From the NCBI GenBank assembly GCA_903894565.1, contig CAITQP010000016.1:16927-80926 (forward strand): a stretch of DNA of 64,000 bases, read 5' to 3'. The notes under the pieces are model-generated. The model was not told where the DNA came from. It saw only the letters and a program-made list of their open reading frames with translations, and did no database searches. A program made the translations under genes and the position numbers. Source of the DNA: an uncultured bacterium (GTDB taxonomy: Bacteria > Patescibacteriota > Minisyncoccia > Phycocordibacterales > UBA9973). Below are positions 1,215 through 52,766 of this stretch, piece after piece (position 1 is the first letter of the stretch; each line of letters begins with the position of its first letter).

Positions 1215-1248
1215 AAGGAAAGCAATTATTGGATGCTTTCCTTTTTTC
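1215..1248 (+). terminator. Intrinsic terminator after dusB
   Basis: 10-bp stem AAGGAAAGCA/TGCTTTCCTT followed by a T-tract. Confidence 0.6.
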
Positions 1249-1281
1249 ATTTGTTTCTTTTTTGTAGAAAGAGCTGTTTTA

Positions 1282-1719
1282 TTACGGTTGAATGTAGACC
1301 GTAAACATATCCGGCACATCTTCTTCTGCGCGGAGAGTAATTCCCGCTGTTGCCGATACTTCATTTACTGGGTAGAAAAATATAATTTCTCCACCTGTTT
1401 CGACATCGAAAGTGGTTTGATATTTTAGGGCGTATTCGCCCTCTTTCGATTTGAGCATAAATCGAATGCTCTTTCGAAAGGCTACGGCCACAATCATAAC
1501 GTACAACTGATTTACACGGCTTCCTGTCAGCTTTGGTGCAATGATCAGTTGTTTTAAATCACGACGGAGTTCTTGCAACCTCAGTTCCGTGATTGTGATT
1601 GGATATGAGCCTATCGCGCCAGCTTTCGTTGCGAACGTGGGAACCCCATTGAATTCATGGGTCAAATTAATTAAGAACTCATCTGTTAAAATCTTCATAT
1701 TTTTTTGGTTTGTCAGCAA
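1282..1719 (-). CDS. hypothetical protein
   Basis: 145-aa ORF with coding-like composition and no recognisable motif. Confidence 0.4.
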   Translation of the reverse strand: MLTNQKNMKILTDEFLINLTHEFNGVPTFATKAGAIGSYPITITELRLQELRRDLKQLIIAPKLTGSRVNQLYVMIVAVAFRKSIRFMLKSKEGEYALKYQTTFDVETGGEIIFFYPVNEVSATAGITLRAEEDVPDMFTVYIQP

Positions 1720-1797
1720 TATACCATTATTTCAAAATAAGTCAAAAAATAGTTGAATTTTCTGACGCTGGGCGTTTTCTGATATACTCATGAACAT

Positions 1798-2823
1798 ATG
1801 AGTGACCAAGCCCTGTATCGCAAATACCGCCCTGAAGTGTTTGCCGATCTCGTTGGTCAGGAACACATTGTCGCTTCGCTTGAAGGGGCGCTTTCGTCGG
1901 GCAAAATCGCGCATGCGTATCTTTTTTCGGGTGGACGCGGTACGGGCAAGACTACGAGTGCGCGTATCCTCGCGAGTGCCCTCGGTACGAGTCCGAGCGA
2001 CACGTACGAGATAGATGCGGCGTCGAACAATGGTGTCGATGACATTCGTGAATTGCGCGAGAACGTCGGCACGCTTCCGTTTGATTCACGATTCAAGGTC
2101 TACATCATCGACGAGGTGCACATGCTCTCAAAGGCTGCATTCAATGCGCTCCTCAAGACACTCGAAGAGCCACCAGCACACGTGATCTTCATCCTCGCAA
2201 CGACCGAACTCGAAAAAGTTCCCGAGACGATCATCTCACGTTGTCAGACGTTTGTATTTCGTAAACCATCTGAATCGACACTTCGAACTGTGATCGAGAA
2301 GACAGCGAAAAAAGAAAAAGTCACGCTCGGCGCAGGTGTGGCAGATTTGATTGCGCTTCTTGCGAATGGATCATTCCGCGATGCACTCGGCACATTGCAA
2401 AAAGTCTGCACGAGCGGGGGAGACAAAGTCTCGCTCGAACAAGCGGCACGCATCACCGGCGCACCATCGAGTACAATCGTGCACGATATCATGGACGCAA
2501 TCGCGCGCGGAGCACTGAGTGAGGCACTCACGACTGTTGAGCGCGCGCGTGCATCCAACATCGAACCCAAAATATTGCTCGGCCTCTTGCTCCACACATT
2601 CCGCCGAGTGCTCTTGCTCAAAGTCGCTCCGTCACTCGCAAAAGGCGAGATCGACGGCTTGAGTGAAGAAGAAAAAGTCTTTTTGATAAAGCTCTCAAAG
2701 TCAGACTCAGTGCACATCAATTCAAACGCGCTCCTCGCGCTCCTCGACGCCATGAGCACCCAAAAGTACGCCTACATCGAAGAATTGCCTCTCGAACTCG
2801 CGCTCATGAAGATGCTTGGATAG
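1798..2823 (+). CDS. dnaX: DNA polymerase III subunit gamma/tau, short 341-aa form
   Basis: YRKYRPEVFADLVGQEH, Walker A GGRGTGKTT, SRC and sensor motifs. Upstream TTGAAT/TATACT promoter-like hexamers. Confidence 0.9.
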   Translation: MSDQALYRKYRPEVFADLVGQEHIVASLEGALSSGKIAHAYLFSGGRGTGKTTSARILASALGTSPSDTYEIDAASNNGVDDIRELRENVGTLPFDSRFKVYIIDEVHMLSKAAFNALLKTLEEPPAHVIFILATTELEKVPETIISRCQTFVFRKPSESTLRTVIEKTAKKEKVTLGAGVADLIALLANGSFRDALGTLQKVCTSGGDKVSLEQAARITGAPSSTIVHDIMDAIARGALSEALTTVERARASNIEPKILLGLLLHTFRRVLLLKVAPSLAKGEIDGLSEEEKVFLIKLSKSDSVHINSNALLALLDAMSTQKYAYIEELPLELALMKMLG

Positions 2824-2923
2824 GGAGGTGTTTCCGGAGGGGAGATGAGGCAGATTCCGGTCAGAACCGCGAGAGAGGTTGTTTTTTGGTCGTAAAAAAG
2901 ATAAGCTAAAGTGTTTTTACCAT

Positions 2924-2997
2924 TGAGGGATCGTCTAACGGTAGGACAGAGGCCTTTGAAGCCTTTAATCGGGGTTCGATTCCCTGTCCCTCAGCCA
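2924..2997 (+). tRNA. tRNA-Gln (anticodon TTG), CCA encoded
   Basis: Manual cloverleaf: acceptor TGAGGGA/TCCCTCA, anticodon stem GAGGC/GCCTT, loop CTTTGAA, T-loop TTCGATT, 3' GCCA. Confidence 0.8.
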
Positions 2998-3094
2998 ACA
3001 AGAGCGCGCACGAGACGCGTCAATGCTACGTTTCGTGAGTTTTGCATAGATTAAAATACGCAGTAGAGCGATATAATACAAGCTCAAATTAAAT

Positions 3095-7459: not shown

Positions 7460-8203
7460 ATGTTGCAACGAAACCACTTCGCCATTCGTGTCATGATGAT
7501 TGTTTTTATTTGCGCCAGTGCGCAGGGTATTTTTGTGCGTGAGGCACAAGCAATCGATACACCACAAACTCCCGTCGAGAAAAAAGTCGCACTCACATTC
7601 GACGATGGTCCATATGGCGAACCAACAAAACAAATTCTCGCCATCCTTAAAAAGGAACAAGTGCACGCCACGTTTTTTGTGATGGGAGAGAACGTAGAAA
7701 AATATCCGGATATTGCGAAGGAGATCGTGGACGATGGCAACGTCATTGCGAATCATTCATATGATCATCCTAAAAACATGACGAGTGAGCCCACCAAGAA
7801 ATTTGATAGTGAATTGATACTGACCGAAAACGCGATTTATACAGCGACCAACAAACTTCCTGATTTGTTTCGTGCTCCATATGGAAAAACTTCGGCTCCA
7901 CTTTTGAAGAAATTACATAATGAGAAATACTTGCTTGTGCCATGGACGCTCGACACACTTGATTGGAATTTTCCAAAGAGTCCAGCTAGTGTCATCGTGA
8001 AGCGTGTCGAGAGTGAAGTGCGATCAAACGATATTATATTGATGCACGATGGACGCGATACAAAGATTGGATACCCGCGAGACAATATCGTTGAGGCCTT
8101 GCCGATTGTGATAGAAAATCTGAAAAAGGAAGGGTATACGTTTGTGACAGTGGATCAGCTGATTGGCAAAAGTGCATATTTCGATAAAAAGGTAGGATCG
8201 TAG
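7460..8203 (+). CDS. polysaccharide deacetylase (NodB-homology/CE4 family), secreted
   Basis: TFDDGP motif, HATFFV, NHSYDHP metal-binding motifs. N-terminal signal/TM. Confidence 0.8.
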   Translation: MLQRNHFAIRVMMIVFICASAQGIFVREAQAIDTPQTPVEKKVALTFDDGPYGEPTKQILAILKKEQVHATFFVMGENVEKYPDIAKEIVDDGNVIANHSYDHPKNMTSEPTKKFDSELILTENAIYTATNKLPDLFRAPYGKTSAPLLKKLHNEKYLLVPWTLDTLDWNFPKSPASVIVKRVESEVRSNDIILMHDGRDTKIGYPRDNIVEALPIVIENLKKEGYTFVTVDQLIGKSAYFDKKVGS

Positions 8204-8300: not shown

Positions 8301-8834
8301 ATGAGTATGAAAAAAATGAGCAAAACAATTTTGCGTGCACTCTTCGTGGGTGTTTTTTTATTGGCTGGGTGTAGTGCTTCGACTGTGTTTGCAAAAGCAA
8401 ACAATAAGACAAAAGGTACACAAACAAGTGTTCCAGATTACGGTGCACTCTTCACACAAAAAACAAAAGATGCGAATCTTTCGCACGATATGATAGTCGG
8501 AACGATTACGGATATCGGTGCACACTCGCTTTCAGTCACACTGACCGAAGCATCAGGCACGTTGCCTGCCGGCACGATCGTCACTGTTGCTACAGCACAT
8601 GCAAAAATGACACGCACTGGTATCGCTAATTTTAAAACAAAGCCATCAGGAAGTGTCTTTCGTTCAATGAGTGCACGATCACATACGAACGCACCAAAAA
8701 CCTCGATGAGTGATTTTGCTATCGGCGATGCTGTCACTGTCGTCGGCTCACTTGATTCAAACAAAGGAATGAAAGCAAAACAAATCATGGCGCACGCAAA
8801 GAATGATTTTCATATTAGTCAACCGGTAAAATAA
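8301..8834 (+). CDS. lipoprotein, hypothetical
   Basis: Signal peptide with lipobox LLAGC. Confidence 0.55.
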   Translation: MSMKKMSKTILRALFVGVFLLAGCSASTVFAKANNKTKGTQTSVPDYGALFTQKTKDANLSHDMIVGTITDIGAHSLSVTLTEASGTLPAGTIVTVATAHAKMTRTGIANFKTKPSGSVFRSMSARSHTNAPKTSMSDFAIGDAVTVVGSLDSNKGMKAKQIMAHAKNDFHISQPVK

Positions 8835-8835
8835 T

Positions 8836-11800
8836 ATGAAAAAAATAACTCTCCTCGCGCTTGGTATTTCTCTTGCAATTGTTTCTTCATTTTTTTTCTA
8901 CACTTCTCATACAACTCACGCTGATACAGCAACATTCACCGTTACGACGCTCGCCGACGATGTTGATGATGCTACCTGTACGGTGAGTTCATGTACGCTT
9001 CGTGAAGCAGTCGCTGCCGCAAGTCCTACACCTGGCGCGACGATAAACTTTGCATCCGGACTCACGGGTACCATTACGGTGAATGACTTACTTGGTTCGA
9101 TCACGATACCAAACAGTTTGAGTATCGTTGGTCCCGGTGCAAGCAAGCTCACAATTTCGGGCAACGACCTCATTCAAGTCATAGTGATTGCTTCAGCTGA
9201 CATCACTGCGACAATTAGCGGTGTGACCATTGCGCATGGTCAATCCCAGGGAGGTTCGGCTATATATAGTACTGGAATACTGACAGTCCATGATGTGACG
9301 TTTAAAAACAACAACGGAGGAGGCGGTGCAACTATTTCAAGTAGCGGCCCAAGTCTTACTGTAACAAACTGTATTTTTACGGGTAATACTTCAGGTGACG
9401 GTGGAGGTATCATTGCAAGTACCGGAACAGTCACGGTTACGAGTTCAGATTTCCTTGGGAATACGGCAAGTGATCAAGGAGGAGCGATTTATATCACAGG
9501 CGATGCAACACTTTCTGTGACCGATTCGACGTTCGACGCGAATGGCTCATCTTTGAATGGTGGCGCAATTTATGACGAAGCAGGAACTGTGCTCACTCTC
9601 ACACGAGATACCTTCCGTTCAAACATGTCGTACATGGGAAACGGAGGAGCTGTGTACAGTACTGGAGATGTGCATACAACGAATGGTTCGTTCTCGAACA
9701 ATAAATCGAGCGGGTACGGAGGCGCAATTGGAACGAACGGAGGTGATGTCACAACCGATGGCACAAACTTCATGACCAATGTGACGTCAGGTGACAACGG
9801 AGGTGCAATTTTTATCAACGCAAGTGGTCTCGGATCGGGGAGTAGTATTGTTGGCGGAACATATTCAAGTAATACTTCGAACTCATGTAACGGAGGAGCG
9901 ATCTTTAGTTCACTGACAACAACCATCAGTGTCTCGAACGCAAGGTTCGCAAAGAATACGGCTAATTGCAACGGAGCTGCACTCTACATTCAAGGAAACA
10001 GTAGTGTCTCAGGGAGTACATTTGAAGGCAATCGAGCATTTGAAAATGGAGGTGCTATTGCTTATGACAACGGAACAACACATACGATTGAAAGCAGTTC
10101 GTTTTTAAACAACACCGCTTTATTCAATGGAGGAGCCGTTTATCAAAATTCCGGCACATTAAGTGTCGCAACAAATACGACATTTACGGGTAATACGATC
10201 GGAACGACCAGCGGAGGAACAGGTGGTGCGATCGACGCACAAGGAGTGAATTTGAATATCGCAGAAGCAACGTTTACTGACAATCAGGCGGGGCTCGATG
10301 GCTGCGGAGGAGCGGTAAGTATCTTTTCAGATGCACATATTCACGACAGTACCTTTACAAACAATCATGGTATTGCGGGAGGGGCTGTGTGCACATTTAA
10401 TACGCATACGGTATTGATTGATGATTCAAGTTTTAGTCAAAACATTGCTCACAACGACGCTGGAGGTGCGATTTACCAAGATGCAGGAGATCTCACTGTT
10501 CACAGTTCAATCTTTAGAGAAAACCAAACTAGTGGCGTACATCGAGGAGGAGCAATTTTCGGTGGAGGAGATTCACTTACGATTACAGGAAGTGCGTTTA
10601 CTCATAATGCATCACAAGGAAGTTATGGTGGTGCGCTCTCTGTTGCGAGTTCATCTCTTGTTCTCAGTACTTCGTCACTTGTTGGAAATACAGCATCTGG
10701 CGGAAACGGAGGAGGAATTTTTCTGAACAATACGAGTAGCGCGTCAATTAGTGACACGACATTCTCGCAAAATAGTGCAAGTTACGGTGGCGGCCTTTCG
10801 ACCAATTCAAATGTTACGCTCACGAATACTACATTCGATGGAAATAATGCGTTATTGAGCGCGAATGTCGAGGTACTCGGAGGTACCGTTTCGGCTGGAA
10901 ATTCGATTTTTTCAAGCATCAATTCGTCAAATTGTAATACAGCAATTACTTCTCTTGGACACAATATTGAAACAGGAACTGATTGCGGACTGACCGATGT
11001 GTCAGACCATCAATCAACCAATCCTCATCTCGACCCAGAAGGTCCAAAATTTTCACCAGAGGGACCAACGTTCGGTGGTCTTCCATATTTGTTTACTGTT
11101 GCACTTACGCCGAGCTCTACGAGTGCTATCAACGGAGGTGCGGGTTGTAGTAGTGCAGATGAGCGTGGCATAGCGCGTGTCGGTACGTGTGATATCGGAG
11201 CGTACGAATATGATGCAAGTCATCCGCAAACTATTTCAACTCCGACTACATACAACACTCCAACGATCATGGTGACTCGTCTCGACGATCCGGTCGGAGG
11301 AACTTGTGTCTCTGGTACGGATTGTTCGCTCCGTCAGGCCGTCGCGTTTGCGATAGGCGGAGAGACGATTGGTTTTGATTCTTCGCAAACCGGAACGCTT
11401 ACGCTTGCTACTCCAATCACTATCGACAAAACAATTCATATTGCTGGATCAGGTCAAAATTTGATCACGCTTTCAGGTGGTGCGACTTCTCAAATTTTCT
11501 TGATTACATCTGATGGCAATCTCTCGCTCGACCACCTGACACTCGCGAATGGGTACGGCGGTTTGGTTGACGCTGGCGCGATTGATGCTGTCGGACCACT
11601 CACCACAAGTTTCGTTACATTCAGAGACAATATGGCACCAAGCGGTGAAGGTGGAGCTATCTATGGAGAATGTGACGTTGTTGGCAGAACTATTTCTCTT
11701 TCGAACACACTGTTCGACGGCAACTTTTCGCTTCTCGGTGGAGCGGTATATAACTGTGGGACAACATCTGATTTGAACGTACTCACTACCGCGAATGATA

Positions 11801-14208
11801 TCTTTGTAAACAACTTTGCTTCAACCGGAAGTGGAGGTGCTGTGTATACAATGAATAGCTCGCTCGACGTCACGAATTCGTTGCTCATAAACAACGCCTC
11901 AAACAACGAAGGAGGAGCAGTCTATGTTACCGCTACGAGTGTAGAGCCAGTGATTACAGTTACGAATTCTGAATTTGAAAACAATTGGTCTCACAATAGT
12001 GGTGGCGCATTTTCAAATGGGTTCAGTGCGCTTGTGCACGTTCACTTTACTGGAGGTTCTGTTTTTCGAGGAAACGTTGCAGAAAATGCCCCGGGTGGAG
12101 CAGTCAATTTGGTTGGCGCATATCTTGATGAAATTTCGAATGTTACGTTTACGGGAAATCAGTCTGCAACAAGTTATGGAGGTGCGATGAATTTGCAGGA
12201 TTTACTCAATGCATCAGTTGCGTTTGATGCCGTACATTTCGATAGTAATTTTGCAGGCAGTGTTGGAGGCGCGCTTCTCTTTTATTCAAGTAGCAATCTA
12301 AGCATTCAAAACGGAACTGAATTTACGGACAACAATGCGGCAAATGGTACTCCTGGAGGAGCAATGTATGTCCATGCAAATAATCTTGCAATTTCTGATG
12401 CTAGTTTTACGTACAATACATCGTGGGGAGAATCTGGTGGAGCAGTGTATATCGACAATACGCCGTACACAATTGATCAAAGTACGTTTACAGGAAATAA
12501 AGCGGCAGCTGGCGGATCAGGTGGAGCATTGTATATTTCAAACGATGGAGATGCCTTAAGCGGTGTGATTACGAATTCAATATTTGACGGCAATTCAACT
12601 ATGAGTGGAAGAGGAGGTGCCATCATGACGACCCTGGGTTCTGGTTCGACCACTATCACAGGATCAACGTTCCTCAACAATTACACATATGATGGTGGTG
12701 AGGGTGCCATTCGTAGTAGTGGTACTGGTCTCACGATTACCAACTCAACGTTTCAAGGAAACGCTGTATTTGACTCATCGGTTGGAGCTGTTGGCCATTA
12801 TGCTGGAAACTTGGTGCTCAGTGGAACGACATTCGCATACAATACGTCCGTTGGTTATGCTGGCGCGATATATGATGCTTCAAATGGAACAAGTACGGTA
12901 AAAAATACAACGTTCTATCGCAACTTCGCTCCCTTTGATGAAGCAGGAGCGTACTACCATGATGGAACTTCTGCTCTTACCGTAAACAACACAACATTCG
13001 CTGAAAACGTATCGAACTCGGAAGGTGGTGCCGGATTGTTTACCTACGCTCCGACGGTTGTAACAAACTCAATCTTTGCCGGTTCGCCACTTGCATCATG
13101 TCACGATGCGGGAAGTCATATCGATGCCGTGAATTCAATGTACAACGTTGATGACGCGAGCGGTTGTTTTGATGGAGAGAATCATAATCAGAATAATATA
13201 AATGGAGCGACTCTCTTTTCGAGTAATGGTCTTGCAATGGGCGGTGGCGAGACGCTAACGCTCGCACTTGCGATTCACTCACCAGCAATCGACGCCGGAA
13301 GCGACACAACATGTGAGATCACCGACCAAACAGGCCGAACACGTGCAGGCAATGGAGTAGCCTGTGATGCAGGAGCTGTTGAATCACATTACGATGTCGT
13401 TACAGAGACGCCAACACTTACGAGCCCAGCAAACGGAAGTTCATATGCACACACTGACTCAATGAGTATCTCGTTCAATCTCCCAGAAACCCCACTCGCA
13501 AATAGTATTGTTCTTACGTTTGCTCCAGCGAGCGGAGACACGATTACGATGCATCTTCGCGATGCAGAACCGAATCGCTTGAATACATTTTTATTGCCGA
13601 TCAGTGGCGGTATCACGACTGGTGTTACTGAAGTCGTTTCTTCAACTGCTGACAGTATTCCTGCTGGAACGTACATCGTAACATTGGCGTATCAAGATGC
13701 GAATGGCAATCCTCAAGCAACAGTAAGTGCGATGGGTGTCGTTGTCGCTGGTGCTGTCACGCACTATAGTGGTGGTGGCGGCGGAGGTGGAGGCGGAATT
13801 ATCATCAGCACGACCACTACTGATACTACGAAAAAGATCGTTGCTATTGATACAACAAAATCTACAAAGACTGATGCGGTCAAACCTATCGTAGTAGTAG
13901 GACTACCAGTAGGATTCCAATTCGCAAAAAATCTCAAACCACTTATGACGAGTAAAGATATCGTACAGTTGCAACTATTCCTGAATGCAAATGGATTTAT
14001 GGTTGCAACGAGCGGGCTCGGTTCGAAAGGGAAAGAAAGTCCATACTTCGGAGTAAAGACCAAGATCGCACTCGTCAAATTCCAAGAAGCATATGCCAAA
14101 GATATCCTTGTTCCACAAGGCTTGACCAAGGGTACTGGAAACCTCGGAACATTCACACGTAAGGTATTGAATGCGTGGATCGCTGGGGTACAGAAGGCGA
14201 CACAATAG
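8836..14208 (+). CDS. giant (1790 aa) secreted parallel beta-helix repeat protein, Pmp/adhesin-like, with C-terminal peptidoglycan-binding-like domain
   Basis: Signal/TM at N-terminus. Two beta-helix modules, each opened by a C-(S/T)-LR-(E/Q)-AVA cap (aa ~50 and ~830). Dozens of GGAI(Y/F) and F-x-x-N repeats. Poly-Gly linker (GGGGGGGGG) then a LQ-FLNANGF...FG-KT-AL-KFQ...GL-KGTG-LG-T segment resembling PG_binding_1. Confidence 0.8.
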   Translation: MKKITLLALGISLAIVSSFFFYTSHTTHADTATFTVTTLADDVDDATCTVSSCTLREAVAAASPTPGATINFASGLTGTITVNDLLGSITIPNSLSIVGPGASKLTISGNDLIQVIVIASADITATISGVTIAHGQSQGGSAIYSTGILTVHDVTFKNNNGGGGATISSSGPSLTVTNCIFTGNTSGDGGGIIASTGTVTVTSSDFLGNTASDQGGAIYITGDATLSVTDSTFDANGSSLNGGAIYDEAGTVLTLTRDTFRSNMSYMGNGGAVYSTGDVHTTNGSFSNNKSSGYGGAIGTNGGDVTTDGTNFMTNVTSGDNGGAIFINASGLGSGSSIVGGTYSSNTSNSCNGGAIFSSLTTTISVSNARFAKNTANCNGAALYIQGNSSVSGSTFEGNRAFENGGAIAYDNGTTHTIESSSFLNNTALFNGGAVYQNSGTLSVATNTTFTGNTIGTTSGGTGGAIDAQGVNLNIAEATFTDNQAGLDGCGGAVSIFSDAHIHDSTFTNNHGIAGGAVCTFNTHTVLIDDSSFSQNIAHNDAGGAIYQDAGDLTVHSSIFRENQTSGVHRGGAIFGGGDSLTITGSAFTHNASQGSYGGALSVASSSLVLSTSSLVGNTASGGNGGGIFLNNTSSASISDTTFSQNSASYGGGLSTNSNVTLTNTTFDGNNALLSANVEVLGGTVSAGNSIFSSINSSNCNTAITSLGHNIETGTDCGLTDVSDHQSTNPHLDPEGPKFSPEGPTFGGLPYLFTVALTPSSTSAINGGAGCSSADERGIARVGTCDIGAYEYDASHPQTISTPTTYNTPTIMVTRLDDPVGGTCVSGTDCSLRQAVAFAIGGETIGFDSSQTGTLTLATPITIDKTIHIAGSGQNLITLSGGATSQIFLITSDGNLSLDHLTLANGYGGLVDAGAIDAVGPLTTSFVTFRDNMAPSGEGGAIYGECDVVGRTISLSNTLFDGNFSLLGGAVYNCGTTSDLNVLTTANDIFVNNFASTGSGGAVYTMNSSLDVTNSLLINNASNNEGGAVYVTATSVEPVITVTNSEFENNWSHNSGGAFSNGFSALVHVHFTGGSVFRGNVAENAPGGAVNLVGAYLDEISNVTFTGNQSATSYGGAMNLQDLLNASVAFDAVHFDSNFAGSVGGALLFYSSSNLSIQNGTEFTDNNAANGTPGGAMYVHANNLAISDASFTYNTSWGESGGAVYIDNTPYTIDQSTFTGNKAAAGGSGGALYISNDGDALSGVITNSIFDGNSTMSGRGGAIMTTLGSGSTTITGSTFLNNYTYDGGEGAIRSSGTGLTITNSTFQGNAVFDSSVGAVGHYAGNLVLSGTTFAYNTSVGYAGAIYDASNGTSTVKNTTFYRNFAPFDEAGAYYHDGTSALTVNNTTFAENVSNSEGGAGLFTYAPTVVTNSIFAGSPLASCHDAGSHIDAVNSMYNVDDASGCFDGENHNQNNINGATLFSSNGLAMGGGETLTLALAIHSPAIDAGSDTTCEITDQTGRTRAGNGVACDAGAVESHYDVVTETPTLTSPANGSSYAHTDSMSISFNLPETPLANSIVLTFAPASGDTITMHLRDAEPNRLNTFLLPISGGITTGVTEVVSSTADSIPAGTYIVTLAYQDANGNPQATVSAMGVVVAGAVTHYSGGGGGGGGGIIISTTTTDTTKKIVAIDTTKSTKTDAVKPIVVVGLPVGFQFAKNLKPLMTSKDIVQLQLFLNANGFMVATSGLGSKGKESPYFGVKTKIALVKFQEAYAKDILVPQGLTKGTGNLGTFTRKVLNAWIAGVQKATQ

Positions 14209-14232
14209 CAGCTTAGTGGTATACTGCCTCCC

Positions 14233-15480
14233 GTGAAAAATGCATCCAATCACTATGATGTCATCGTCATCGGGGGCGGAGCCTCGGGCATGATTGCAGC
14301 AGGACGCGCAGCCGAAATCGGCAAGCGCGTTTTGTTGCTTGAAAAAAACAAGCACCTCGGCGAGAAACTCAAAATTTCTGGTGGTGGTCGCTGCAATATT
14401 ACGAATGCGACATACGACACGCGAGCGCTTCTTGCGAATTATGGTGACGCATCGCAGTTTCTTTTTTCGCCGTTTTCCAAATTTGGCGTGCAAGATACAT
14501 TTACATTTTTCGAATCGCGCGGATTGCCGCTCGTCGTGCAAGCCCGCAATCGCGCCTTTCCTGCGACTGAAAAATCTGTTGATGTCATTCGCACACTCGA
14601 CGGATATTTGCGAAAGGGAAATGTCGAGATCAAATCGGGCATTACCGTGAAGCGTCTATCGAAGCATGATGGTCTCGTGTCGGGGGTCGAGACTCCGGCC
14701 GGTGTGTTTACGGCCGAGACATACATCCTCGCGACTGGCGGAGTATCGCATCCGGAAACTGGTTCGACGGGTGACGGATTCAAATGGCTCGCAGATCTCG
14801 GACATACTATTAAACAGCCAACACCAACAATCGTACCACTCGCCGTCGCCGAAGAATGGGTGCACGCGCTTTCTGGTGTGTCGCTCTCGTTTATGAAAGT
14901 TACATTTTTCCTTGAGGACAAAAAACAATTTTCCAAAACAGGCAAAATTTTGTTTACGCATTTTGGACTTTCGGGTCCGCTCATTTTGAATTCGGCGGGG
15001 AAGGTGGGAGATTTGTTGCAAGAAGGGCGCGTGAGCGCCCGTATCGACGCGTATCCAGATACGGAAATCGGTGCGCTTGATGCACAGATCACCAAACATT
15101 TTGATGCGAACAAAAACAAAATGCTCAAGAATATTTTGAAAGAAATTGTGCCTGAAGGTATGGCACCAGGCATTGCACAACTCCTCACTGCGATCAATCT
15201 CGATACCAAAGTGCACAGCATCACAAAGGCTGAACGTCGTATCATCGTCGATACATTGAAAGCACTTCCAGTCACAATCACCAATCTCATGGGCTATGAC
15301 CGTGCCGTCGTCGCTGACGGAGGTCTCGCGCTCAGTGAAATCGACACCAAAACAATGCGTTCGAAAATAACGCCAAACCTTGCCGTCACCGGCGACCTTC
15401 TCCATATCAATCGTCCAAGTGGTGGCTACTCACTCCAGCTCTGCTGGACAAGTGGCTGGGTTGCGGGCGCAAATTCCTAA
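14233..15480 (+). CDS. FAD-dependent oxidoreductase, HI0933/YhiN (aminoacetone oxidase-like) family
   Basis: GTG start. YDVIVIGGGASGMIAAGRAAE Rossmann motif, GGGRCN. Confidence 0.8.
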   Translation: MKNASNHYDVIVIGGGASGMIAAGRAAEIGKRVLLLEKNKHLGEKLKISGGGRCNITNATYDTRALLANYGDASQFLFSPFSKFGVQDTFTFFESRGLPLVVQARNRAFPATEKSVDVIRTLDGYLRKGNVEIKSGITVKRLSKHDGLVSGVETPAGVFTAETYILATGGVSHPETGSTGDGFKWLADLGHTIKQPTPTIVPLAVAEEWVHALSGVSLSFMKVTFFLEDKKQFSKTGKILFTHFGLSGPLILNSAGKVGDLLQEGRVSARIDAYPDTEIGALDAQITKHFDANKNKMLKNILKEIVPEGMAPGIAQLLTAINLDTKVHSITKAERRIIVDTLKALPVTITNLMGYDRAVVADGGLALSEIDTKTMRSKITPNLAVTGDLLHINRPSGGYSLQLCWTSGWVAGANS

Positions 15481-21443: not shown

Positions 21444-21866
21444 TTAAAAAATCTTCTCTAGTTTGTCCATAAACAGTAATGTTACCGTTGCAGGGGTAGA
21501 CGTATCTAGCCCGCACGATACTTGGTCCCCGACAAGTGTTCCCATCCATCGATTGGGGTACATAGCAAGTGGTGGGGTCGGCATACCAGCAGGTTCTTTC
21601 AGGTCTGCGTTCAAACGCTCTCGAAGATCAGATAGCCTATCCATAGGTACTTCGTATACGAAGTAGTACGTACTACTCTTATTCTTAGTATGAGTGTAGT
21701 CACTCATTGAGGTCGCACCTGCGTTTTTAGCACTTACGATGTGTTGATTTCGCCAAATTTCAAAATTCTTTGTTGAGCATGTTAACTCGCTGAGACATGC
21801 AACAATTCTAATTTTACCCATAATTGTCAGTTTTGCCCAATCTACCATATGGAATGCATTCGTCAA
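21444..21866 (-). CDS. hypothetical protein; doubtful ORF in the long pyr-upstream intergenic region
   Basis: 140-aa ORF without motifs. The region contains adjacent perfect palindromes. Confidence 0.25.
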   Translation of the reverse strand: MTNAFHMVDWAKLTIMGKIRIVACLSELTCSTKNFEIWRNQHIVSAKNAGATSMSDYTHTKNKSSTYYFVYEVPMDRLSDLRERLNADLKEPAGMPTPPLAMYPNRWMGTLVGDQVSCGLDTSTPATVTLLFMDKLEKIF

Positions 21867-22033
21867 ATGTTTTGACTTTTGGCTCCAATCTTGCTATTCT
21901 TTTCTGGATATACCCATGCAATCGAAAACCATCCACAACTTCGTTTTTGGTTTTAAACCCCACTCTCATTCTGAGGGCTGGGGTTATTTTTTTGCCTCGA
22001 CATCTCGGGGCTCCGACTATTCGGGAAGTGCCC

Positions 22034-23266
22034 ATGCTTAGTATCGAGGGAATGATGGTTTTGCCCGAGGGGACGCGAATTGCTCGGGTGGAGATTGATA
22101 CGGAGAGTGGAATGATCACGAAGGTAGCGGAGCCGGTAGGCTCCGCGGATATCGTGCTCGATAGCACGAAGCTTGTATTCCCAGGGTTCATCGACATTCA
22201 TGTACACGCACGCGAAGACGTGACTCATTCACAGGATTACAAGGAGGATTACCTCACTGCAAGTGAAGCCGCGATACATGGCGGACTTGTCGCATTTGCA
22301 GACATGCCAAACTGTCCGACACCACCAGTCGATGATGCGTCGTACAATGCTCGCGAGGCACTCACAGAGAAATCTGCAGTCACGATTTTGCTCTACGCCG
22401 GCATTGGACCAGCGACCAATCCGCTCACACACACAGTTCCATACAAGGCATTCATGGGTCACTCAATGGGTGATCTCTTTTTCAGCTCACGTGGTGAGCT
22501 CGACAGCACGCTCGCACGCTACGAAGGTCAATCAGTCAGTTTTCATTGTGAAGATCCAAAAATAATGGACGAACACAAAGGCGATGCGACACACGAAGCA
22601 CGTCGCCCTGCGATTGCTGAAACTTCCGCTGTCGACACTGCACTTCTATTGATTGAAAAATATAATCTCAAGGGCAAAATTTGTCACGCCTCAACGATCG
22701 AAGCGATTCAGAAAATCCGAGATGCAAAAGCGCGCGGCCTCAACGTCACCGTTGAAGTCACACCACACCATCTCTATTTTGACGAGACACAATTCCCTGA
22801 TCATGTACCGACACAATTTCAAGTAAATCCGCCAATTCGCCAAACCAAAGAAAATCGTCTTGCATTGATCAAAGCACTCCGCAGTGGAGACATTGATTAT
22901 CTCGCCACCGACCACGCGCCACATTCAATCGAAGAAAAGAAAAGCGGAATGTCTGGTCTCACGCATCTTGATACCTACGGCGCATTCACAACATGGCTCA
23001 TGCATGAACACGCATTTCGACCTGAAGATATTGCTCGCGTGTGCGCGAATGGTCCAGGGCAATTCATGAATAAATTTCTGCCGGATAAATACGGACTTAT
23101 CAAGGAAGGCTACACAGGGTCAATTACGATACTTGCACCAAATATGCCGACAGAAGTTCGAGCAGAGGATCTTGAAACAAAGTGCAAGTGGTCACCGTTC
23201 GAAGGAGTTACATTCCAAGGCAAAGTCGTTATAACCATAGTGAAAGGAAAAATATATGAATGCTAA
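22034..23266 (+). CDS. pyrC: dihydroorotase (cyclic amidohydrolase family)
   Basis: PGFIDIHVHAREDV, carboxylated-lysine region, DHAPH. Start trimmed to ATG at 22034. Confidence 0.8.
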   Translation: MLSIEGMMVLPEGTRIARVEIDTESGMITKVAEPVGSADIVLDSTKLVFPGFIDIHVHAREDVTHSQDYKEDYLTASEAAIHGGLVAFADMPNCPTPPVDDASYNAREALTEKSAVTILLYAGIGPATNPLTHTVPYKAFMGHSMGDLFFSSRGELDSTLARYEGQSVSFHCEDPKIMDEHKGDATHEARRPAIAETSAVDTALLLIEKYNLKGKICHASTIEAIQKIRDAKARGLNVTVEVTPHHLYFDETQFPDHVPTQFQVNPPIRQTKENRLALIKALRSGDIDYLATDHAPHSIEEKKSGMSGLTHLDTYGAFTTWLMHEHAFRPEDIARVCANGPGQFMNKFLPDKYGLIKEGYTGSITILAPNMPTEVRAEDLETKCKWSPFEGVTFQGKVVITIVKGKIYEC

Positions 23267-24305
23267 ATTAATTTTTAAAGACAAAACTGAATTCGAAGGC
23301 AAAAGTTTCGGGGCTGATACACCTGTCTCTGGCGAAGTCGTGTTTGCTACCGGTATGGTTGGATATCCTGAAGCGTTGACTGATCCATCGTTCCGCGGAC
23401 AGATTCTCGTCATGACATATCCACTCGTGGGCAACTACGGCGTGCCTCGCGAGGACCTCTGGGAATCAAAAGAAATTCAGGTTGCGGGACTCATTGTCTC
23501 CTCATATATAGACACTCCTTCACACTCGACATCAGAAATGACACTTGGGGAATGGTTTCGCAAACAGAATGTACCGCTCTTTGAAATCAAGGACACACGT
23601 GCGCTTGCAGAAAAATTGCGTGATGGGGGTGCGATGCTTGGCAAGATGATTGTTGGCAAAAAGGATATTCCATTTGTTGATCCGAACATTCGCAATCTTT
23701 CGGCAGAAGTTTCGACCAAAGAAATGCTCACGTTTGGTGAGGGAGAAAAAACTGTCGTGGTGATCGACTGTGGTACGAAGATGAATATCGCGCGACGCTT
23801 CGCGTCGCGCGGAGTCAAAGTCGTCGTCGTTCCATGGGACACTGACGTGACAAAACTCGACTTCGTCGTTGACGGCGTCCTCATTTCAAATGGCCCCGGC
23901 GATCCCAAAAAAGTTACTGCAACGATCGCAAATGTGAAAAAAATTCTTGCAAAGAAAATTCCAATTCTCGGAATTTGTCTTGGAAATCAAATCCTCGCGC
24001 TTGCAGCCGGAGGCAATACATACAAATTGAAATTCGGTCACCGCAGTCAAAACCAGCCAGCAGTACTATCGGGTACGAATCAGGCATACCTCACAACACA
24101 AAATCACGGTTTTGCAGTAGGCAAAATTCCGTCAGGATTTCGCGAGTGGTTTGTGAATGGGAATGATGGAACAAACGAAGGAATCATTCACAAGTCACTG
24201 CCAATCATGTCCGTACAGTTCCATCCTGAAAGTTCACCAGGGCCACTTGATACCGATTGGATTTTCGACTACTTCTTAGAAAAAGCTAACCTCCTCAAGA
24301 AGTAA
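23256..24305 (+). CDS. carA: carbamoyl-phosphate synthase small (glutaminase) subunit
   Basis: GMVGYPEALTDPSF, GICLGNQ catalytic Cys, HPE. Confidence 0.9.
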   Translation: MNAKLIFKDKTEFEGKSFGADTPVSGEVVFATGMVGYPEALTDPSFRGQILVMTYPLVGNYGVPREDLWESKEIQVAGLIVSSYIDTPSHSTSEMTLGEWFRKQNVPLFEIKDTRALAEKLRDGGAMLGKMIVGKKDIPFVDPNIRNLSAEVSTKEMLTFGEGEKTVVVIDCGTKMNIARRFASRGVKVVVVPWDTDVTKLDFVVDGVLISNGPGDPKKVTATIANVKKILAKKIPILGICLGNQILALAAGGNTYKLKFGHRSQNQPAVLSGTNQAYLTTQNHGFAVGKIPSGFREWFVNGNDGTNEGIIHKSLPIMSVQFHPESSPGPLDTDWIFDYFLEKANLLKK

Positions 24306-24308
24306 TCT

Positions 24309-27300
24309 ATGGCAACATCTAAAACGACAATGAAAAAAGACTCACAAAAAAATCACACTGCGAAATTTAAAAAAGTCCTCGTCCTCGGATCAGGAGCTTT
24401 GAAGATTGGTGAAGCAGGTGAATTCGACTATTCAGGTTCCCAAGCAATTAAGGCACTCAAAGAAGAGGGTATTAAGTGTATCCTCATCAACCCAAACATC
24501 GCGACATTCCAGACATCGAAAGAGCTTGCTGACGAGGTCTATTTTTTGCCAGTGAATCCATATTTCGTTGAAAAAGTGATTGCCAAGGAAAAGCCAGACG
24601 GCATCATGCTTTCATTCGGTGGACAGACTGCACTCAACTGCGGACTCGCCCTCGAAGAAAAAGGTATTTTGAAAAAGCATAACGTTGCCGTACTCGGTAC
24701 ACCGGTCGCTTCTATTGATCTCACTGAAGATCGTCAGCTTTTTGCAGATCATCTTCGTGCGCTCGGCATTCCAACTGCACCAAGTGGTGCAGCGACGAAT
24801 TTTGAAGATGCACTTCGCATCGGTCACCAAATTGGATTTCCCCTCATGGTTCGTGCAGCATTTGCGCTTGGCGGACAAAAGTCAGGAATCGCGCATGATG
24901 ACGCCGAGCTCAAAGAGATCGTGGACGGCGCACTCGCGATCGCGCCACAGGTACTCGTCGAAAAATATTTGCACCATTTCAAAGAAATTGAATATGAAGT
25001 CGTGCGTGACCGATTCGACAATACAGTTACAGTTTGTAACATGGAGAACTTTGACCCACTCGGTATTCATACCGGCGACTCGATTGTCATTGCGCCATCA
25101 CAAACGCTCAACAACTTTGAATATCATGGTTTGCGCGAAGCTTCAATTCGCATCGTGAAGAGTCTTGGTATCGTCGGAGAATGTAACGTGCAGTACGCGC
25201 TCAATCCAAATCCAAAAGAAGGGGAACTCGATTACTTTGTGATTGAGGTTAACGCGCGCCTCTCTCGATCGAGTGCGCTTGCTTCAAAAGCAACTGGATA
25301 TCCGCTTGCGTATGTTGCGGCAAAACTTGCGCTTGGAAAAAGTTTGCTCGAAATCAAAAACAAAATCACACAAGTCACTCAGAGTTTCTTTGAACCCGCG
25401 CTCGACTATGTCGTGGTCAAGTTTCCACGTTGGGATCTCGACAAGTTTGTCGGTGCCGATGTCAAAATCGGTAGTGCAATGAAGTCTGTCGGAGAAGTCA
25501 TGGCTATCGGCAGAAATTTCGAAGAAGCAATGCAGAAAGCTGTACGCATGCAGTCTGGAGCAACCGAAAGTGTGACTGACAACGGATTCGTCGACAAGAA
25601 TGAAGTGCGACGATTTCTTGAAACGCCAACTCCAAAGCGCTTGTTTGCCATTACGGAGAGTATGAAAGATGGGATGAGTGTTGATACGATTCACGATATC
25701 ACCGGTGTGGATCGCTGGTTCTTGTATCGACTCGAAGTTATTGTTCGAGCCGAACTCGCACTCGAAAAAACAAAGAAGCTCGATAAGGAAACCATGCTTT
25801 CGCTTAAACGACTCGGCTTTTCAGACAAGAAAATCGGACAAGTTATTGGCAAAACTGAATTTGATGTACGCAAGACTCGTAAGCAATTCAAGATTCTTCC
25901 TTCGATATTTCAGATTGATACGCTTGCAGGAGAAGTGCCTGCGAAGACAAACTATTTGTATCTCACATATCACGGCAATCACAACGACGTAAAGCCACTC
26001 GGCAAAAATGCAATCATGGTACTTGGTTCAGGACCATACCATATTGGAAGTTCTGTTGAATTCGATTGGTCATGCGTGAATGCTGCACTCGCTCTCAAGA
26101 AACACAAAAAAGAATCAATCGTCATCAACTGTAATCCGGAAACAGTTTCGACTGACTACGACATGAGTGATCGTCTCTACTTCGAAAACCTTTCATTCGA
26201 AACGGTTGCAGATATTTATGAGTTTGAAAATTCTGGAGGTCTCGTGATTTCTGTTGGAGGTCAGCGACCAAACAATCTTGCACGAAAGCTTTCGAAAGAA
26301 AAATTCCACATTCTCGGAACAACGGCGCAAAACATTGATCGAGCCGAAGATCGCAATGCGTTCAGTGCTTTGCTCGACAAACTCAACATCTTGCAACCAA
26401 AATGGCAGAGCTTTAGTACGCTCGAAGAGGCGGAGAAATTCGCTGAGATCGAAGGATATCCTGTGCTTGTACGTCCTTCATATGTGCTCTCAGGCGCTGC
26501 GATGAGTGTTTGCTACACAAAGGCACAATTGCACAATTTCATTGGCAAAGCCGCGATTCTTGGGCCAGAGCATCCAGTGACTATTTCGAAATTCGTCGAG
26601 AATGCGAAGGAACTTGAATTTGATGCCGTCGCTCAAAATGGTGAAGTCATGGTCTACGGTATTAGTGAACACGTTGAGAATGCTGGAGTACACTCTGGTG
26701 ACGCGACAATTGTTTTCCCAACTCAGCGCGTCTATGCATCGACCGAATCGCAAATCCGCGAAATCTCAAAAAAGATTGCGAAAGAACTTTCAATCACTGG
26801 ACCATTCAACATCCAGTTCCTCGTCAAAGACAACAAGCCGTCGGTGATTGAAGTGAATCTTCGTGCAAGTCGCACGTTCCCAATGCTTTCAAAAGCAATG
26901 GATGTGAACTTTCCAGAAATGGCAGTTGATAGTTTCTTCGGCAAAGCAAAGCCGCACACGTTCGTATACCCAAAGAGTGTTATCGTGAAGAGTCCACAAT
27001 TCTCCTTCTCACGATTGCTCGGTGCGGATCCAATCTTGCGTGTTGAGATGTCTTCAACTGGTGAAGTGGCATGTTTCGGAAAAGATTACGATGAGGCATT
27101 ATTGAAATCGATCATGAGTGCGCATACGTTTGATTTTCGAAAGAAAAGCGTCTTGCTCTCACTTGGTGGTTTGGTAAATAAGGCAAAATTCTTAGAATCA
27201 GCAAAGTTACTCAACGCACTTGGGTACAAACTATATGCGACAGAAAACACGGCAGAATTCTTGAACGAGCAAGGTGTCGAAACGACAATGGTACGAAAAG

Positions 27301-27575
27301 CATATGAAGATTCACCGAACTTCCTCGACCTCATGCATTCAAGAGAAGTCGCCTTCGTTGTAAACTTGAGTCAGACGGCAAGTATGAAAAAAGAAAAAGA
27401 GGGCGAGAAACAGCTCACCGATGGATTCCAAATTCGTCGCGCTGCTGTCGACAATCAGGTGCCACTCTTTACCGATCTTCATCTTGGACGAGCATTCATC
27501 AAAGCACTCTCGAATTATCAAATCGATGACCTTGAGATTAAGTCGTACAAGGAATATCTCGGTATTACTCAATAA
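24309..27575 (+). CDS. carB: carbamoyl-phosphate synthase large subunit
   Basis: 1088 aa, duplicated ATP-grasp halves, MGS-like C-terminal domain. Confidence 0.95.
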   Translation: MATSKTTMKKDSQKNHTAKFKKVLVLGSGALKIGEAGEFDYSGSQAIKALKEEGIKCILINPNIATFQTSKELADEVYFLPVNPYFVEKVIAKEKPDGIMLSFGGQTALNCGLALEEKGILKKHNVAVLGTPVASIDLTEDRQLFADHLRALGIPTAPSGAATNFEDALRIGHQIGFPLMVRAAFALGGQKSGIAHDDAELKEIVDGALAIAPQVLVEKYLHHFKEIEYEVVRDRFDNTVTVCNMENFDPLGIHTGDSIVIAPSQTLNNFEYHGLREASIRIVKSLGIVGECNVQYALNPNPKEGELDYFVIEVNARLSRSSALASKATGYPLAYVAAKLALGKSLLEIKNKITQVTQSFFEPALDYVVVKFPRWDLDKFVGADVKIGSAMKSVGEVMAIGRNFEEAMQKAVRMQSGATESVTDNGFVDKNEVRRFLETPTPKRLFAITESMKDGMSVDTIHDITGVDRWFLYRLEVIVRAELALEKTKKLDKETMLSLKRLGFSDKKIGQVIGKTEFDVRKTRKQFKILPSIFQIDTLAGEVPAKTNYLYLTYHGNHNDVKPLGKNAIMVLGSGPYHIGSSVEFDWSCVNAALALKKHKKESIVINCNPETVSTDYDMSDRLYFENLSFETVADIYEFENSGGLVISVGGQRPNNLARKLSKEKFHILGTTAQNIDRAEDRNAFSALLDKLNILQPKWQSFSTLEEAEKFAEIEGYPVLVRPSYVLSGAAMSVCYTKAQLHNFIGKAAILGPEHPVTISKFVENAKELEFDAVAQNGEVMVYGISEHVENAGVHSGDATIVFPTQRVYASTESQIREISKKIAKELSITGPFNIQFLVKDNKPSVIEVNLRASRTFPMLSKAMDVNFPEMAVDSFFGKAKPHTFVYPKSVIVKSPQFSFSRLLGADPILRVEMSSTGEVACFGKDYDEALLKSIMSAHTFDFRKKSVLLSLGGLVNKAKFLESAKLLNALGYKLYATENTAEFLNEQGVETTMVRKAYEDSPNFLDLMHSREVAFVVNLSQTASMKKEKEGEKQLTDGFQIRRAAVDNQVPLFTDLHLGRAFIKALSNYQIDDLEIKSYKEYLGITQ

Positions 27576-27584
27576 TAGAAATAT

Positions 27585-28502
27585 ATGTCACACGTACTCA
27601 CAACGAAGCAGTTCACAAAAGCCGACGCAGAACGTATCCTCGCGCGTGCGAAGGATATGGAATTGCAGTGTTCCACTGGAACTGTCGACAAATTGTTAAA
27701 AGACAAAATTGTTGCATGTATTTTCTTTGAGCCATCAACACGCACCCGACTTTCGTTTGAGACAGCCGCTCTTCGTCTTGGAGCTCAGGTAATTTCCGCA
27801 GAAGATGCTGCAGGGAATTCTTCAGCATACAAAGGGGAGACGATCAAGGATACCGCTCGGATTCTTTCATGCTACGCAGATGCAATTGTAATGCGCCACT
27901 ATCTTCCAGGAGCGGCCGAGGCTCTCGCCTCGGCCGCCTCAAAGCCCGTCGTCAATGCTGGCGATGGAGCTCATGAGCACCCATCACAAGGATTGCTTGA
28001 TCTCTACACGATCAAAAAGGAGCACGGACGTCTCGAGAATCTTACGGTGGCCTTTGTTGGGGATTTGAAAAATAGCCGAACACTACATTCTTTACTTCCG
28101 CTCATGGTGCAGTATCCTGGAAACATATTTTATTTTGTCTCGCCGAAAGAATTACGTGTTGCACCTGAACAGCTTGCAGACCTTACTGCAAAAGGTGTGA
28201 AATTCATCGAATCAGAAAATCTTGACGAAGTATTACCCAAAGCTGATGTGCTTTATATGACACGTGTTCAAAAGGAACGTTTCGAAAACGAAGCAGATTA
28301 TGACAAAGTAAAAGACGCTTTCTTGCTTGTAAAATCAGACCTTGATCAAATGAAGCCAGATGCGATTATCATGCACCCACTTCCACGTATTAACGAAGTT
28401 GATCATGCGATTGATACTGACAAACGCGCTGCATATTTCCGCCAAGCACAAAATGGTCTCTACGTTCGCATGGCACTTTTGCTCTACGTTTTTGGATTAT
28501 AA
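27585..28502 (+). CDS. pyrB: aspartate carbamoyltransferase catalytic subunit
   Basis: FFEPSTRTR, HPLP motifs. Confidence 0.9.
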   Translation: MSHVLTTKQFTKADAERILARAKDMELQCSTGTVDKLLKDKIVACIFFEPSTRTRLSFETAALRLGAQVISAEDAAGNSSAYKGETIKDTARILSCYADAIVMRHYLPGAAEALASAASKPVVNAGDGAHEHPSQGLLDLYTIKKEHGRLENLTVAFVGDLKNSRTLHSLLPLMVQYPGNIFYFVSPKELRVAPEQLADLTAKGVKFIESENLDEVLPKADVLYMTRVQKERFENEADYDKVKDAFLLVKSDLDQMKPDAIIMHPLPRINEVDHAIDTDKRAAYFRQAQNGLYVRMALLLYVFGL

Positions 28503-51951: not shown

Positions 51952-52275
51952 AAGAATCTCAGTATACCAGGCATCTATTTGCTTGTCTTTACAAGAGGAT
52001 TACTTTGACATTTAGATACAATATCTTTGTAAATGGAAGTTTTTATGTAGAAACCCAAAAATACGCAAAGTGCATTGGGGTCATAGGTTCATTTAGCATG
52101 AACCAAAAAAATGAAATTGTACTTGCATCCAAATGGCTCGCAGGTACACGTGCGTACGCCCTAGAGGGTTATTATTACGCACGGGAACCTATATCATTAT
52201 ATGAAGTACACAGCATTCGCTTGTCTTTTTGTGTAAAAATGATTTCTGTTGTAGTCTAATCAAAACAATTGAAAA

Positions 52276-52695: not shown

Positions 52696-52766
52696 TTATA
52701 TACTATTGACTTTTTTAAAATAAGTTATATTATGAATTTCATAAATTCATTCAAACTACATCGCAT

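Follow-up and report, generated by a model that had tools for sequence, protein, structure and literature searches.

A predicted wall-retained surface protein with two capped beta-helix modules in a bacterium of the Paceibacteria group

In a stretch of 64,000 nucleotides from an uncultured bacterium (GCA_903894565.1, contig CAITQP010000016.1), hereafter called the window and used as the frame for all coordinates, we analysed a giant gene coding for a protein of 1,790 residues (8836..14208, with an ATG start and the stop codon included in the end coordinate). Its 5,373 nucleotides represent 8.4% of the window, and the list of open reading frames (ORFs) agrees in this with an initial annotation of the region, which had reported an ORF of 1,790 residues taking up 8% of the DNA. 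The giant gene, its features and the two upstream genes described below all lie on the plus strand. The protein consists of two tandem beta-helix modules, each closed at both ends by catalogued cap domains, followed by a beta-sandwich resembling immunoglobulin (Ig) and fibronectin type III (FN3) domains, a flexible linker and a C-terminal PG_binding_1 domain. It originates from a bacterium of the candidate phyla radiation (CPR), and its gene is preceded by that of a conserved small partner protein. We interpret it as a Sec-exported surface protein of the CSLREA/PMP-repeat/choice-of-anchor Q type, which would be held on the peptidoglycan of its own cell by the PG_binding_1 domain, with its rods facing outward, and which probably serves in contact. 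We give this reading as a whole a probability of about 0.6. The less specific statement that it is an exported, wall-retained beta-helix surface protein appears highly probable to us, and the role of adhesin, proposed by analogy, is put forward tentatively.

Capped beta-helix modules

Profile searches identified the repetitive part of the protein as parallel beta-helices related to those of chlamydial Pmp proteins. The Pfam Beta_helix signature (PF13229) matches six stretches with 98.8 bits (gathering threshold (GA) 25.9, E 3e-28), and matches were also obtained with Chlam_PMP (PF02415; 51.6 bits, GA 20.6, E 4e-14) and POMP_repeat (TIGR01376; 34.6 bits for a cut-off of 15). Two further signatures define the ends of the modules. 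The CSLREA domain (TIGR04214) is found in two stretches, with 29.7 bits for a cut-off of 25 and the best match at residues 34-62. The choice-of-anchor Q domain (NF041518) is also found twice, with 82.2 bits for a cut-off of 25 and the best match at residues 1466-1517. Each module is hence organized as a CSLREA cap, some 20 PMP-type coils and a choice-of-anchor Q cap. The Cys-x-LR-E/Q-AVA cap motif described in the initial annotation corresponds to the catalogued CSLREA N-terminal domain (NCBIfam TIGR04214). All the features on its domain list are present, but it had omitted the two choice-of-anchor Q domains, the identity of the CSLREA family and the Ig/FN3-like domain.

In module 1, the CSLREA cap (8935..9021, residues 34-62; TIGR04214) harbours the invariant pair C48/C53. 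Beta-helix 1 (9133..10899, residues 100-688) comprises ~21 PMP-type coils of ~27 residues, as delineated by the Beta_helix, Chlam_PMP and TIGR01376 matches and by motif spacing. The C-terminal cap (10900..11214, residues 689-793) contains the choice-of-anchor Q domain, with the invariant pairs C700/C717 and C771/C785, and ends with CDIGAYEYD; this copy of the domain was placed by module-to-module alignment and by its motif. Module 2 opens with a CSLREA cap (11266..11355, residues 811-840, invariant pair C824/C830) that corresponds to the second TIGR04214 stretch and whose exact bounds are deduced from the module alignment. Beta-helix 2 (11356..13065, residues 841-1410) has ~17-18 coils according to the Pfam and NCBIfam matches, the module alignment and the motif spacing, and it is followed by a C-terminal cap with the second choice-of-anchor Q domain (13066..13389, residues 1411-1518, invariant pairs C1422/C1444 and C1493/C1510).

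The two modules (residues 31-830 and 831-1560) align colinearly from end to end over 792 columns, with 28.5% identity and an E value of 1e-28, which shows that a single module was duplicated in tandem. The number of caps and the density of the repeats were compared with those in 1,000 composition-preserving shuffles of the sequence. The motif C-x-LR-(E/Q)-A is present exactly twice, at residues 53 (CTLREAVA) and 830 (CSLRQAVA), and it occurred in none of the shuffles. The protein contains 26 GGA[IVLMFA] motifs (shuffle mean 1.1 +/- 1.1, maximum 7) and 37 FxxN motifs (6.5 +/- 2.3, maximum 15). GGA follows FxxN by ~9-11 residues, successive GGA motifs are 24-32 residues apart and the autocorrelation of the motifs peaks at 27-28 residues. 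Two tandem modules, each opened by the cap motif, and dozens of GGAI and FxxN repeats had been proposed in the initial annotation, and both proposals are borne out by these counts. The coils are very regular, with few long side loops.

Eight Cys pairs are invariant in an alignment of five orthologues that reaches down to 45% identity: one in each CSLREA cap, two in each choice-of-anchor Q region and one inside each helix. Such invariant pairs fit disulfide-stabilised extracytoplasmic domains.

The N-terminus has the features of a signal peptide (8836..8922, residues 1-29), with an MKK start, a hydrophobic core and a T-H-A|D motif at which cleavage is predicted. The hydrophobic window at residues 2-24 is the sole strongly hydrophobic segment at either terminus; a second stretch resembling a transmembrane (TM) segment, near residues 112-133, is beta-strand-like and located within the helix. 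H28, A29 and D30 are invariant in the five orthologues, all of which retain a cleavage-type motif, (T/V/A)-H-A|D, in the signal peptide, the remainder of which is 27-34% identical in the distant ones. The signal or TM segment noted at the N-terminus in the initial annotation is consistent with this analysis.

No LPXTG motif or C-terminal TM segment is present in the 1,790 residues, which rules out a sortase substrate. An autotransporter is likewise ruled out: the Pfam scan contains no match at E<=0.1 to the autotransporter barrel (PF03797) or to the Pmp middle domain, in line with the initial annotation, which had reported no beta-barrel translocator. The likeness to chlamydial Pmp proteins resides in the pair of GGA(I/L/V) and FxxN motifs in each beta-helix coil and in the Chlam_PMP and POMP_repeat matches. 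In contrast with Pmps, which have a single passenger, the window protein has two capped modules, and at the place of the barrel it has a beta-sandwich and, after a disordered linker, a three-helix bundle. The window protein is predicted to reside on the wall, whereas Pmps are inserted in the outer membrane.

The C-terminal cassette and the proposed mode of retention

The second module is followed by an Ig/FN3-like beta-sandwich spacer (13408..13755, residues 1525-1640), which belongs to a widespread repeat family and has no Pfam match in the giant protein. The flexible linker (13756..13911, residues 1641-1692) contains a run of nine Gly (nucleotides 13771-13797, residues 1646-1654), which is the poly-Gly linker mentioned in the initial annotation, and continues with a Thr/Lys-rich stretch. 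Its predicted local distance difference test (pLDDT) score in the AlphaFold2 model is below 50 over model residues 126-150, and it is the region least conserved among orthologues (13-67% identity). The PG_binding_1 domain (13912..14187, residues 1693-1784) harbours a nine-residue insertion, AKDILVPQG, before its last helix.

Several analyses support the identification of the terminal domain as a PG_binding_1 variant. In three orthologues (P0003, P0004 and P0005), the homologous position is occupied by a classical PG_binding_1 domain, to which the window sequence aligns with the single insertion AKDILVPQG. P0003 and P0004, as well as many homologues with the insertion, pass the GA of PF01471 (e.g. 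P0143, with 69 bits). PDB profile searches with the domain matched exclusively proteins that carry PG_binding_1 (4nso, 5tv7, 7rum, 4xxt, CtpB, phiKZ gp144, the AP3 endolysin, SleB, 1lbu and an L,D-transpeptidase). A phmmer search of the PDB with the last 290 residues yielded noise only, and a profile was needed to reveal the relationship. Because generic Ig/FN3 matches dominated the Foldseek results obtained with the two-domain model, we modelled the C-terminal domain alone. It forms three main helices with high confidence (pLDDT 95.3, predicted template modelling score 0.86), in a bundle superposable on solved PG_binding_1 domains. The initial annotation had made its reading depend on such a PG_binding_1-like three-helix bundle at the end of the protein, and the model bears it out.

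We scanned 1.84 billion representative proteins with HMMER using residues 1525-1790, which yielded 6,859 matches at E<=1e-3. Such an exhaustive search was needed, since a word-indexed search with the 98-residue C-terminal domain returned three proteins only. The matches split into two independent units, of ~110 residues (residues 1525-1637) and ~90 residues (residues 1694-1784). The Ig-like unit occurs elsewhere in tandem, with up to 14 copies per protein in a re-scan and 18 matched stretches in the server listing for P0124. Homologues of the unit, which forms arrays in unannotated proteins (P0124, P0126 and P0129), gave only weak Big_13-type matches, and P0125, another protein with an array of Ig-like domains, ends in a type IX secretion system sorting domain.

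As a rule, the PG_binding_1 unit forms the very C-terminus of the protein, as a single copy or in up to four. It is present in 132 of the 149 best representative matches; among these 132 proteins, it lies at most 15 residues from the C-terminus in 113, has the insertion-type motif in 105 and is present in two copies in 85. The proteins that carry this variant range from 144 to 5,509 residues, the largest being annotated as Candidatus Nomurabacteria, the sole taxon-labelled example from the cluster look-ups. Nineteen of the carriers also have the Ig-like domain, and other passengers include cadherin-like, Big_9, fn3 and CHB_HEX_C domains. We found no second protein with the same anchor in the 64-kb window. 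Judged by its distribution across these sequences, the insertion-type PG_binding_1 unit behaves like a retention device that can be fitted to the C-terminus of varied proteins. The PG_binding_1 segment had thus been located correctly in the initial annotation, which missed the reuse of the variant on many other proteins, often after an Ig-like domain.

The insertion, with the consensus ..ILxPxGL.., lies between helix 2 and the G-x-x-G turn and sets the window variant apart from the PG_binding_1 domains of CtpB, SleB, the Zn DD-peptidase (1LBU) and phage endolysins (phiKZ gp144, AP3). The latter sit on wall hydrolases, whereas here the domain is part of a giant, non-enzymatic protein. Its arrangement follows the same logic as that of proteins bound non-covalently to the wall of monoderm bacteria through GW, choline-binding or LysM modules, with a signal peptide, an ectodomain and a C-terminal wall binder, although the fold of the binder differs. 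Monoderm bacteria usually retain their own surface proteins by such a module, which binds the wall non-covalently from the C-terminus.

The lysyl-tRNA synthetase encoded in the window has a 100% identical counterpart in NCBI, Logan and ENA and its nearest named relatives in 'Candidatus Pacebacteria' (83% and 82% identity), 'Candidatus Paceibacterota' (74%) and 'Candidatus Taylorbacteria' (72%), which places the organism in the Paceibacteria group of the Patescibacteria/CPR. The placement is in line with the reduced, episymbiont-type bacterium suspected in the initial annotation. Two penicillin-binding protein 2 (PBP2)-type transpeptidases (PBP_dimer and Transpeptidase domains; 39610-41319 and 47838-49631) are encoded in the window within a span of 10 kb, indicating that a peptidoglycan wall is made.

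In the mechanism we propose, signal peptidase I would probably cleave after T-H-A29, and the mature chain would form two rigid, right-handed parallel beta-helix rods. From general beta-helix geometry (~4.8 A for each of the ~21 and ~17-18 coils), we estimate their lengths at roughly 10 and 9 nm. Each rod would be capped by a CSLREA domain at its N-terminus and a choice-of-anchor Q domain at its C-terminus, both presumably stapled by disulfides. The Ig/FN3-like spacer and a disordered, Gly/Thr-rich tether of ~50 residues would then lead to the PG_binding_1 domain, whose non-covalent binding to the peptidoglycan of its own cell is predicted to retain the protein. With its C-terminus held in this manner, the protein would project its rods outward. 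By analogy with Pmp and autotransporter passengers, their most likely role would be adhesion to, or other contact with, a host cell or surface, and the co-translated, DUF5666-like small protein, predicted to be secreted, would be a conserved partner.

The invariant Cys pairs, the conserved signal-peptide motif, the terminal placement of the anchor in homologues (113 of 132) and the PBP2-type transpeptidases argue for this mechanism. Three observations weigh against it. The window protein itself scores below the PF01471 threshold, with 14.7 bits at full length and 22.6 bits for the isolated domain (GA 23). PDB sequence searches, with the whole protein or with a profile of the five orthologues, revealed no relative of the beta-helix modules. 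Lastly, Pmp beta-helices, including fragments with GGA/FxxN motifs, mediate adhesion (PMC2997323), but these motifs are predicted to be structural elements of coil stacking, and Pmp adhesion has been mapped to side loops (PMC11166332). As long loops are few in the window protein, the motifs alone are no argument for adhesion.

A rare group of orthologues with a conserved partner gene

More than 1,200 proteins match the giant protein at E<=1e-5, and identity falls to ~30% beyond five orthologous clusters. The orthologous group itself is rare: it consists of five clusters at 90% identity in 5.8 billion sequences, and among 185,579 GTDB species representatives it is found in one genome only, the metagenome-assembled genome 'bacterium ELA106' (GCA_037143195.1, 76% identity). 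Metagenome scans with the orthologue and partner profiles uncovered no further orthologous loci. The relatives retrieved by genome scans belong mostly to Chloroflexota (Anaerolineae), with some in Gammaproteobacteria, Nitrospirae and other groups, and the protein search also names relatives in Planctomycetota such as Gimesia. CSLREA/choice-of-anchor Q proteins (TIGR04214, NF041518) are common in Chloroflexota, Planctomycetota and some Proteobacteria.

The window protein shares with this family the module grammar, a choice-of-anchor Q domain ending with C-D-x-G-A-x-E and the existence of tandem forms. Four CSLREA motifs are found in P0015 and P0042, two in P0054, P0064 and P0107, and three choice-of-anchor Q ends in P0005. 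Based on the profile matches, its assignment as a new member of the CSLREA/PMP-repeat/choice-of-anchor Q family, which is already catalogued and remains uncharacterised, is well supported. It differs from other members by its non-covalent PG_binding_1 anchor, placed after an Ig-like spacer and a tether, and by its occurrence in a CPR organism. P0015, P0054 and P0064 end instead in a hydrophobic segment and a basic tail that resemble a sorting signal. The C-terminal tails of the multi-module relatives vary (e.g. a hydrophobic segment followed by RRKSR), which is what the name 'choice-of-anchor' describes. The sole experimental localisation that we found for the family concerns a CSLREA-domain protein listed among putative type II secretion system-dependent secreted proteins in the culture supernatant of Acinetobacter baumannii (PMC9245377).

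The five orthologues are strictly colinear through both modules, with no gaps of four residues or more, which rules out repeat-number variation among them. The 3' end of the gene evolves differently. Between the window protein and P0001, which are 96% identical overall, the rods and caps are 98-100% identical, except for the second choice-of-anchor Q cap (93%), whereas the Ig-like domain and the linker are only 75% and 67% identical, respectively. The Ig-like domain of the window protein is closer to that of P0002, an orthologue with 76% overall identity, with which it shares 81% of its residues. In P0004, a CHB_HEX_C-type domain replaces the Ig-like domain and the anchor is kept. This mosaic at the 3' end (13408-13911) suggests that cassettes may be exchanged by recombination.

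Directly upstream of the giant gene lies that of the small partner protein (8301..8834, 177 residues), which is predicted to be secreted or lipid-anchored and has a DUF5666-like C-terminal beta-barrel. The partner's stop codon can be read in the sequence 1 nucleotide before the ATG of the giant gene. A homologue precedes the giant gene in all four other loci: it is near-identical to the window copy in L081, and the identity is 81% in L001 and 24-26% in L002 and L003. Around the pair, the two orthologue lineages have entirely different flanking genes. DUF5666 (PF18914, GA 27) is matched with 27.1 bits in L003, 24.3 bits in L002 and 15.5 bits in L001, and the window copy has no match at E<=0.1. 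A PDB search with the partner profile found nothing. With the partner HMM, no homologue was detected in 76 loci encoding more distant family members, which indicates that the pairing with the giant gene is specific to a small clade. A promoter and terminator scan returned promoter-like sites at chance level.

The initial annotation had described the small protein as a lipoprotein, and an LAGC lipobox is indeed present (8361-8372). However, this motif is found only in the window and in L081, a strain with 96% identity. The lipobox Cys is replaced by Thr in the 81%-identical orthologue of L001 (7460-7996 of that locus), and L002 and L003 have no lipobox. Lipidation is therefore not a conserved property of the partner. 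From these sequences, strains may differ in whether the protein is anchored by a lipid or just secreted.

Alternative readings, genomic context and significance

The regularity of the rods also fits a structural coat, in which the protein would be a spacer or a protective component of the envelope, like an accessory or a fibril of the surface layer (S-layer), devoid of a specific ligand. Adhesins are typically phase-variable or rapidly diversifying, whereas the smooth, regular rods of the window protein have few loops and keep the same length and repeat number in orthologues down to 45% identity. In addition, the Ig-like domain is similar to spacer modules of the S-layer and FN3 types. A core component of the envelope would nevertheless be expected to be common, and the orthologous group is rare, with five clusters, one GTDB genome and no locus in the JGI scans. 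We consider a purely structural function unlikely, although it fares best among the alternatives.

The polarity of the protein can also be reversed. The C-terminal PG_binding_1 domain would then bind the peptidoglycan of the host (the basibiont), like a grappling hook on its tether, and the other end would be fixed to the CPR cell, either by an N-terminal anchor that escapes cleavage or via the small partner, which is co-translated and, in the window strain, predicted to be lipid-anchored. The binding domain does follow a disordered tether of ~50 residues and would be distal if the N-terminus were attached, and the partner is conserved, translationally coupled and endowed with a lipobox or a hydrophobic N-terminus. 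The PG_binding_1 fold targets foreign walls in endolysins and in a type VI secretion system-type effector (PDB 3bkh, 5nm7, 7rum, 4nso). Moreover, according to PMC12206443, the cultivated members of the clade to which the organism belongs are episymbionts.

Yet the hydrophobic core is followed by a conserved small-x-A|D motif, which favours cleavage of the signal peptide, the lipobox Cys of the partner is not conserved and a C-terminal non-covalent module normally serves self-retention in monoderms. The available evidence does not separate self from host peptidoglycan as the ligand. Attachment to the host wall by the C-terminus appears to us somewhat less probable again than a structural coat. 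If it were true, the nine-residue insertion would tune the specificity of the PG_binding_1 variant, and the proteins of up to 5,509 residues with one to four terminal copies of the domain would represent a general attachment toolkit of episymbionts.

An enzymatic function was considered as well, since beta-helices of the polysaccharide lyase or glycoside hydrolase type, as found in pectate lyases and phage tailspikes, could degrade glycans of the host or the matrix from a wall-anchored position. Beta_helix (PF13229) is common to many carbohydrate-active enzymes, one relative (P0026) bears the UniRef name 'Probable pectate lyase C', and a deacetylase gene is found nearby (see below). We regard this as improbable, because no lyase or hydrolase family is matched in Pfam or NCBIfam, the PDB sequence searches returned no enzyme relative, the linkage of the deacetylase gene is not conserved and the uniform PMP-type coils are characteristic of passenger and adhesin rods (PMC11166332).

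The deacetylase in question is the product of the adjacent gene upstream of the partner gene (7460..8203, 247 residues), outside the region covered by the initial annotation (8301-14208), which had nevertheless mentioned it correctly. It is predicted to be a secreted polysaccharide or peptidoglycan deacetylase of the CE4 family (PF01522, 116.5 bits, GA 23.1, E 1e-33), and its translation contains the motifs TFDDGP, HSYDH, RAPYG and LMHD. The PgdA/PdaB-type matches in NCBIfam are sub-threshold, with all equivalogs below their cut-offs.

The initial annotation had combined the CE4 deacetylase, the lipoprotein and the giant protein into one cell-surface remodelling unit, of which the small protein has proved to be a conserved partner. 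The proposal as a whole appears improbable. The three products are all predicted to be exported, and their genes are adjacent and on the same strand in the window, L081 and L001, but 97 nucleotides separate the CE4 gene from the partner gene, compared with 1 nucleotide between the latter and the giant gene, and L002 and L003, whose orthologues are 45% identical, keep the partner with no CE4 gene nearby. Synteny in L001, a close relative like L081, extends over unrelated housekeeping genes (DUF817, an HI0933-like flavoprotein and enolase) and reflects close relatedness rather than functional linkage. That CE4 belongs to the same system as the giant protein is not supported. The wall-retained surface protein with outward rods remains the reading that we prefer.

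Other genes were recorded around the orthologous loci. In L001, a restriction-modification pair (RE_LlaMI/MvaI_BcnI and a DNA methylase; 1242-3003) lies just upstream of the syntenic block and has no counterpart among the ORFs scanned in the equivalent part of the window. In L003, one of the distant loci, the gene directly downstream of the giant gene (13152-15431) encodes a further large protein of the surface or exported kind, a secreted subtilase (Peptidase_S8) that has a fervidolysin-type prodomain and FIVAR repeats.

Elsewhere in the window, a MacB-type ABC permease and an HlyD-family fusion protein are encoded on the minus strand (31096-34836). Contiguous genes of de novo pyrimidine biosynthesis were found at 21824-28499, coding for an amidohydrolase/dihydroorotase-like protein, CarA, CarB (1,088 residues) and aspartate carbamoyltransferase. 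CPR bacteria are usually described as devoid of nucleotide biosynthesis, and the presence of these genes in a Paceibacteria genome suggests that the lineage may be less reduced than is typical. A stretch with a GC content of 0.36-0.38, compared with ~0.45 elsewhere (52000-56100), harbours a run of small ORFs that have no Pfam match except for a GtrA-like membrane protein. It adjoins three tRNA genes (Glu, Arg and Phe; 57044-58009) and could be an island of foreign or mobile DNA.

We see no sign of a new mechanism or a new kind of system in these data. To our knowledge, the means by which CPR/Patescibacteria attach to their hosts are largely unknown apart from type IV pili, and large exported proteins such as this one are obvious candidates. 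It is reasonable to consider the giant protein as a candidate for host contact by an episymbiont, and our analysis yields a parts list for it: two capped rods, an Ig-like spacer, a tether and a peptidoglycan-binding anchor, plus a conserved small partner. If the PG_binding_1 variant is the standard means of wall retention in these organisms, it would provide a simple sequence handle for the prediction of their surface proteomes.

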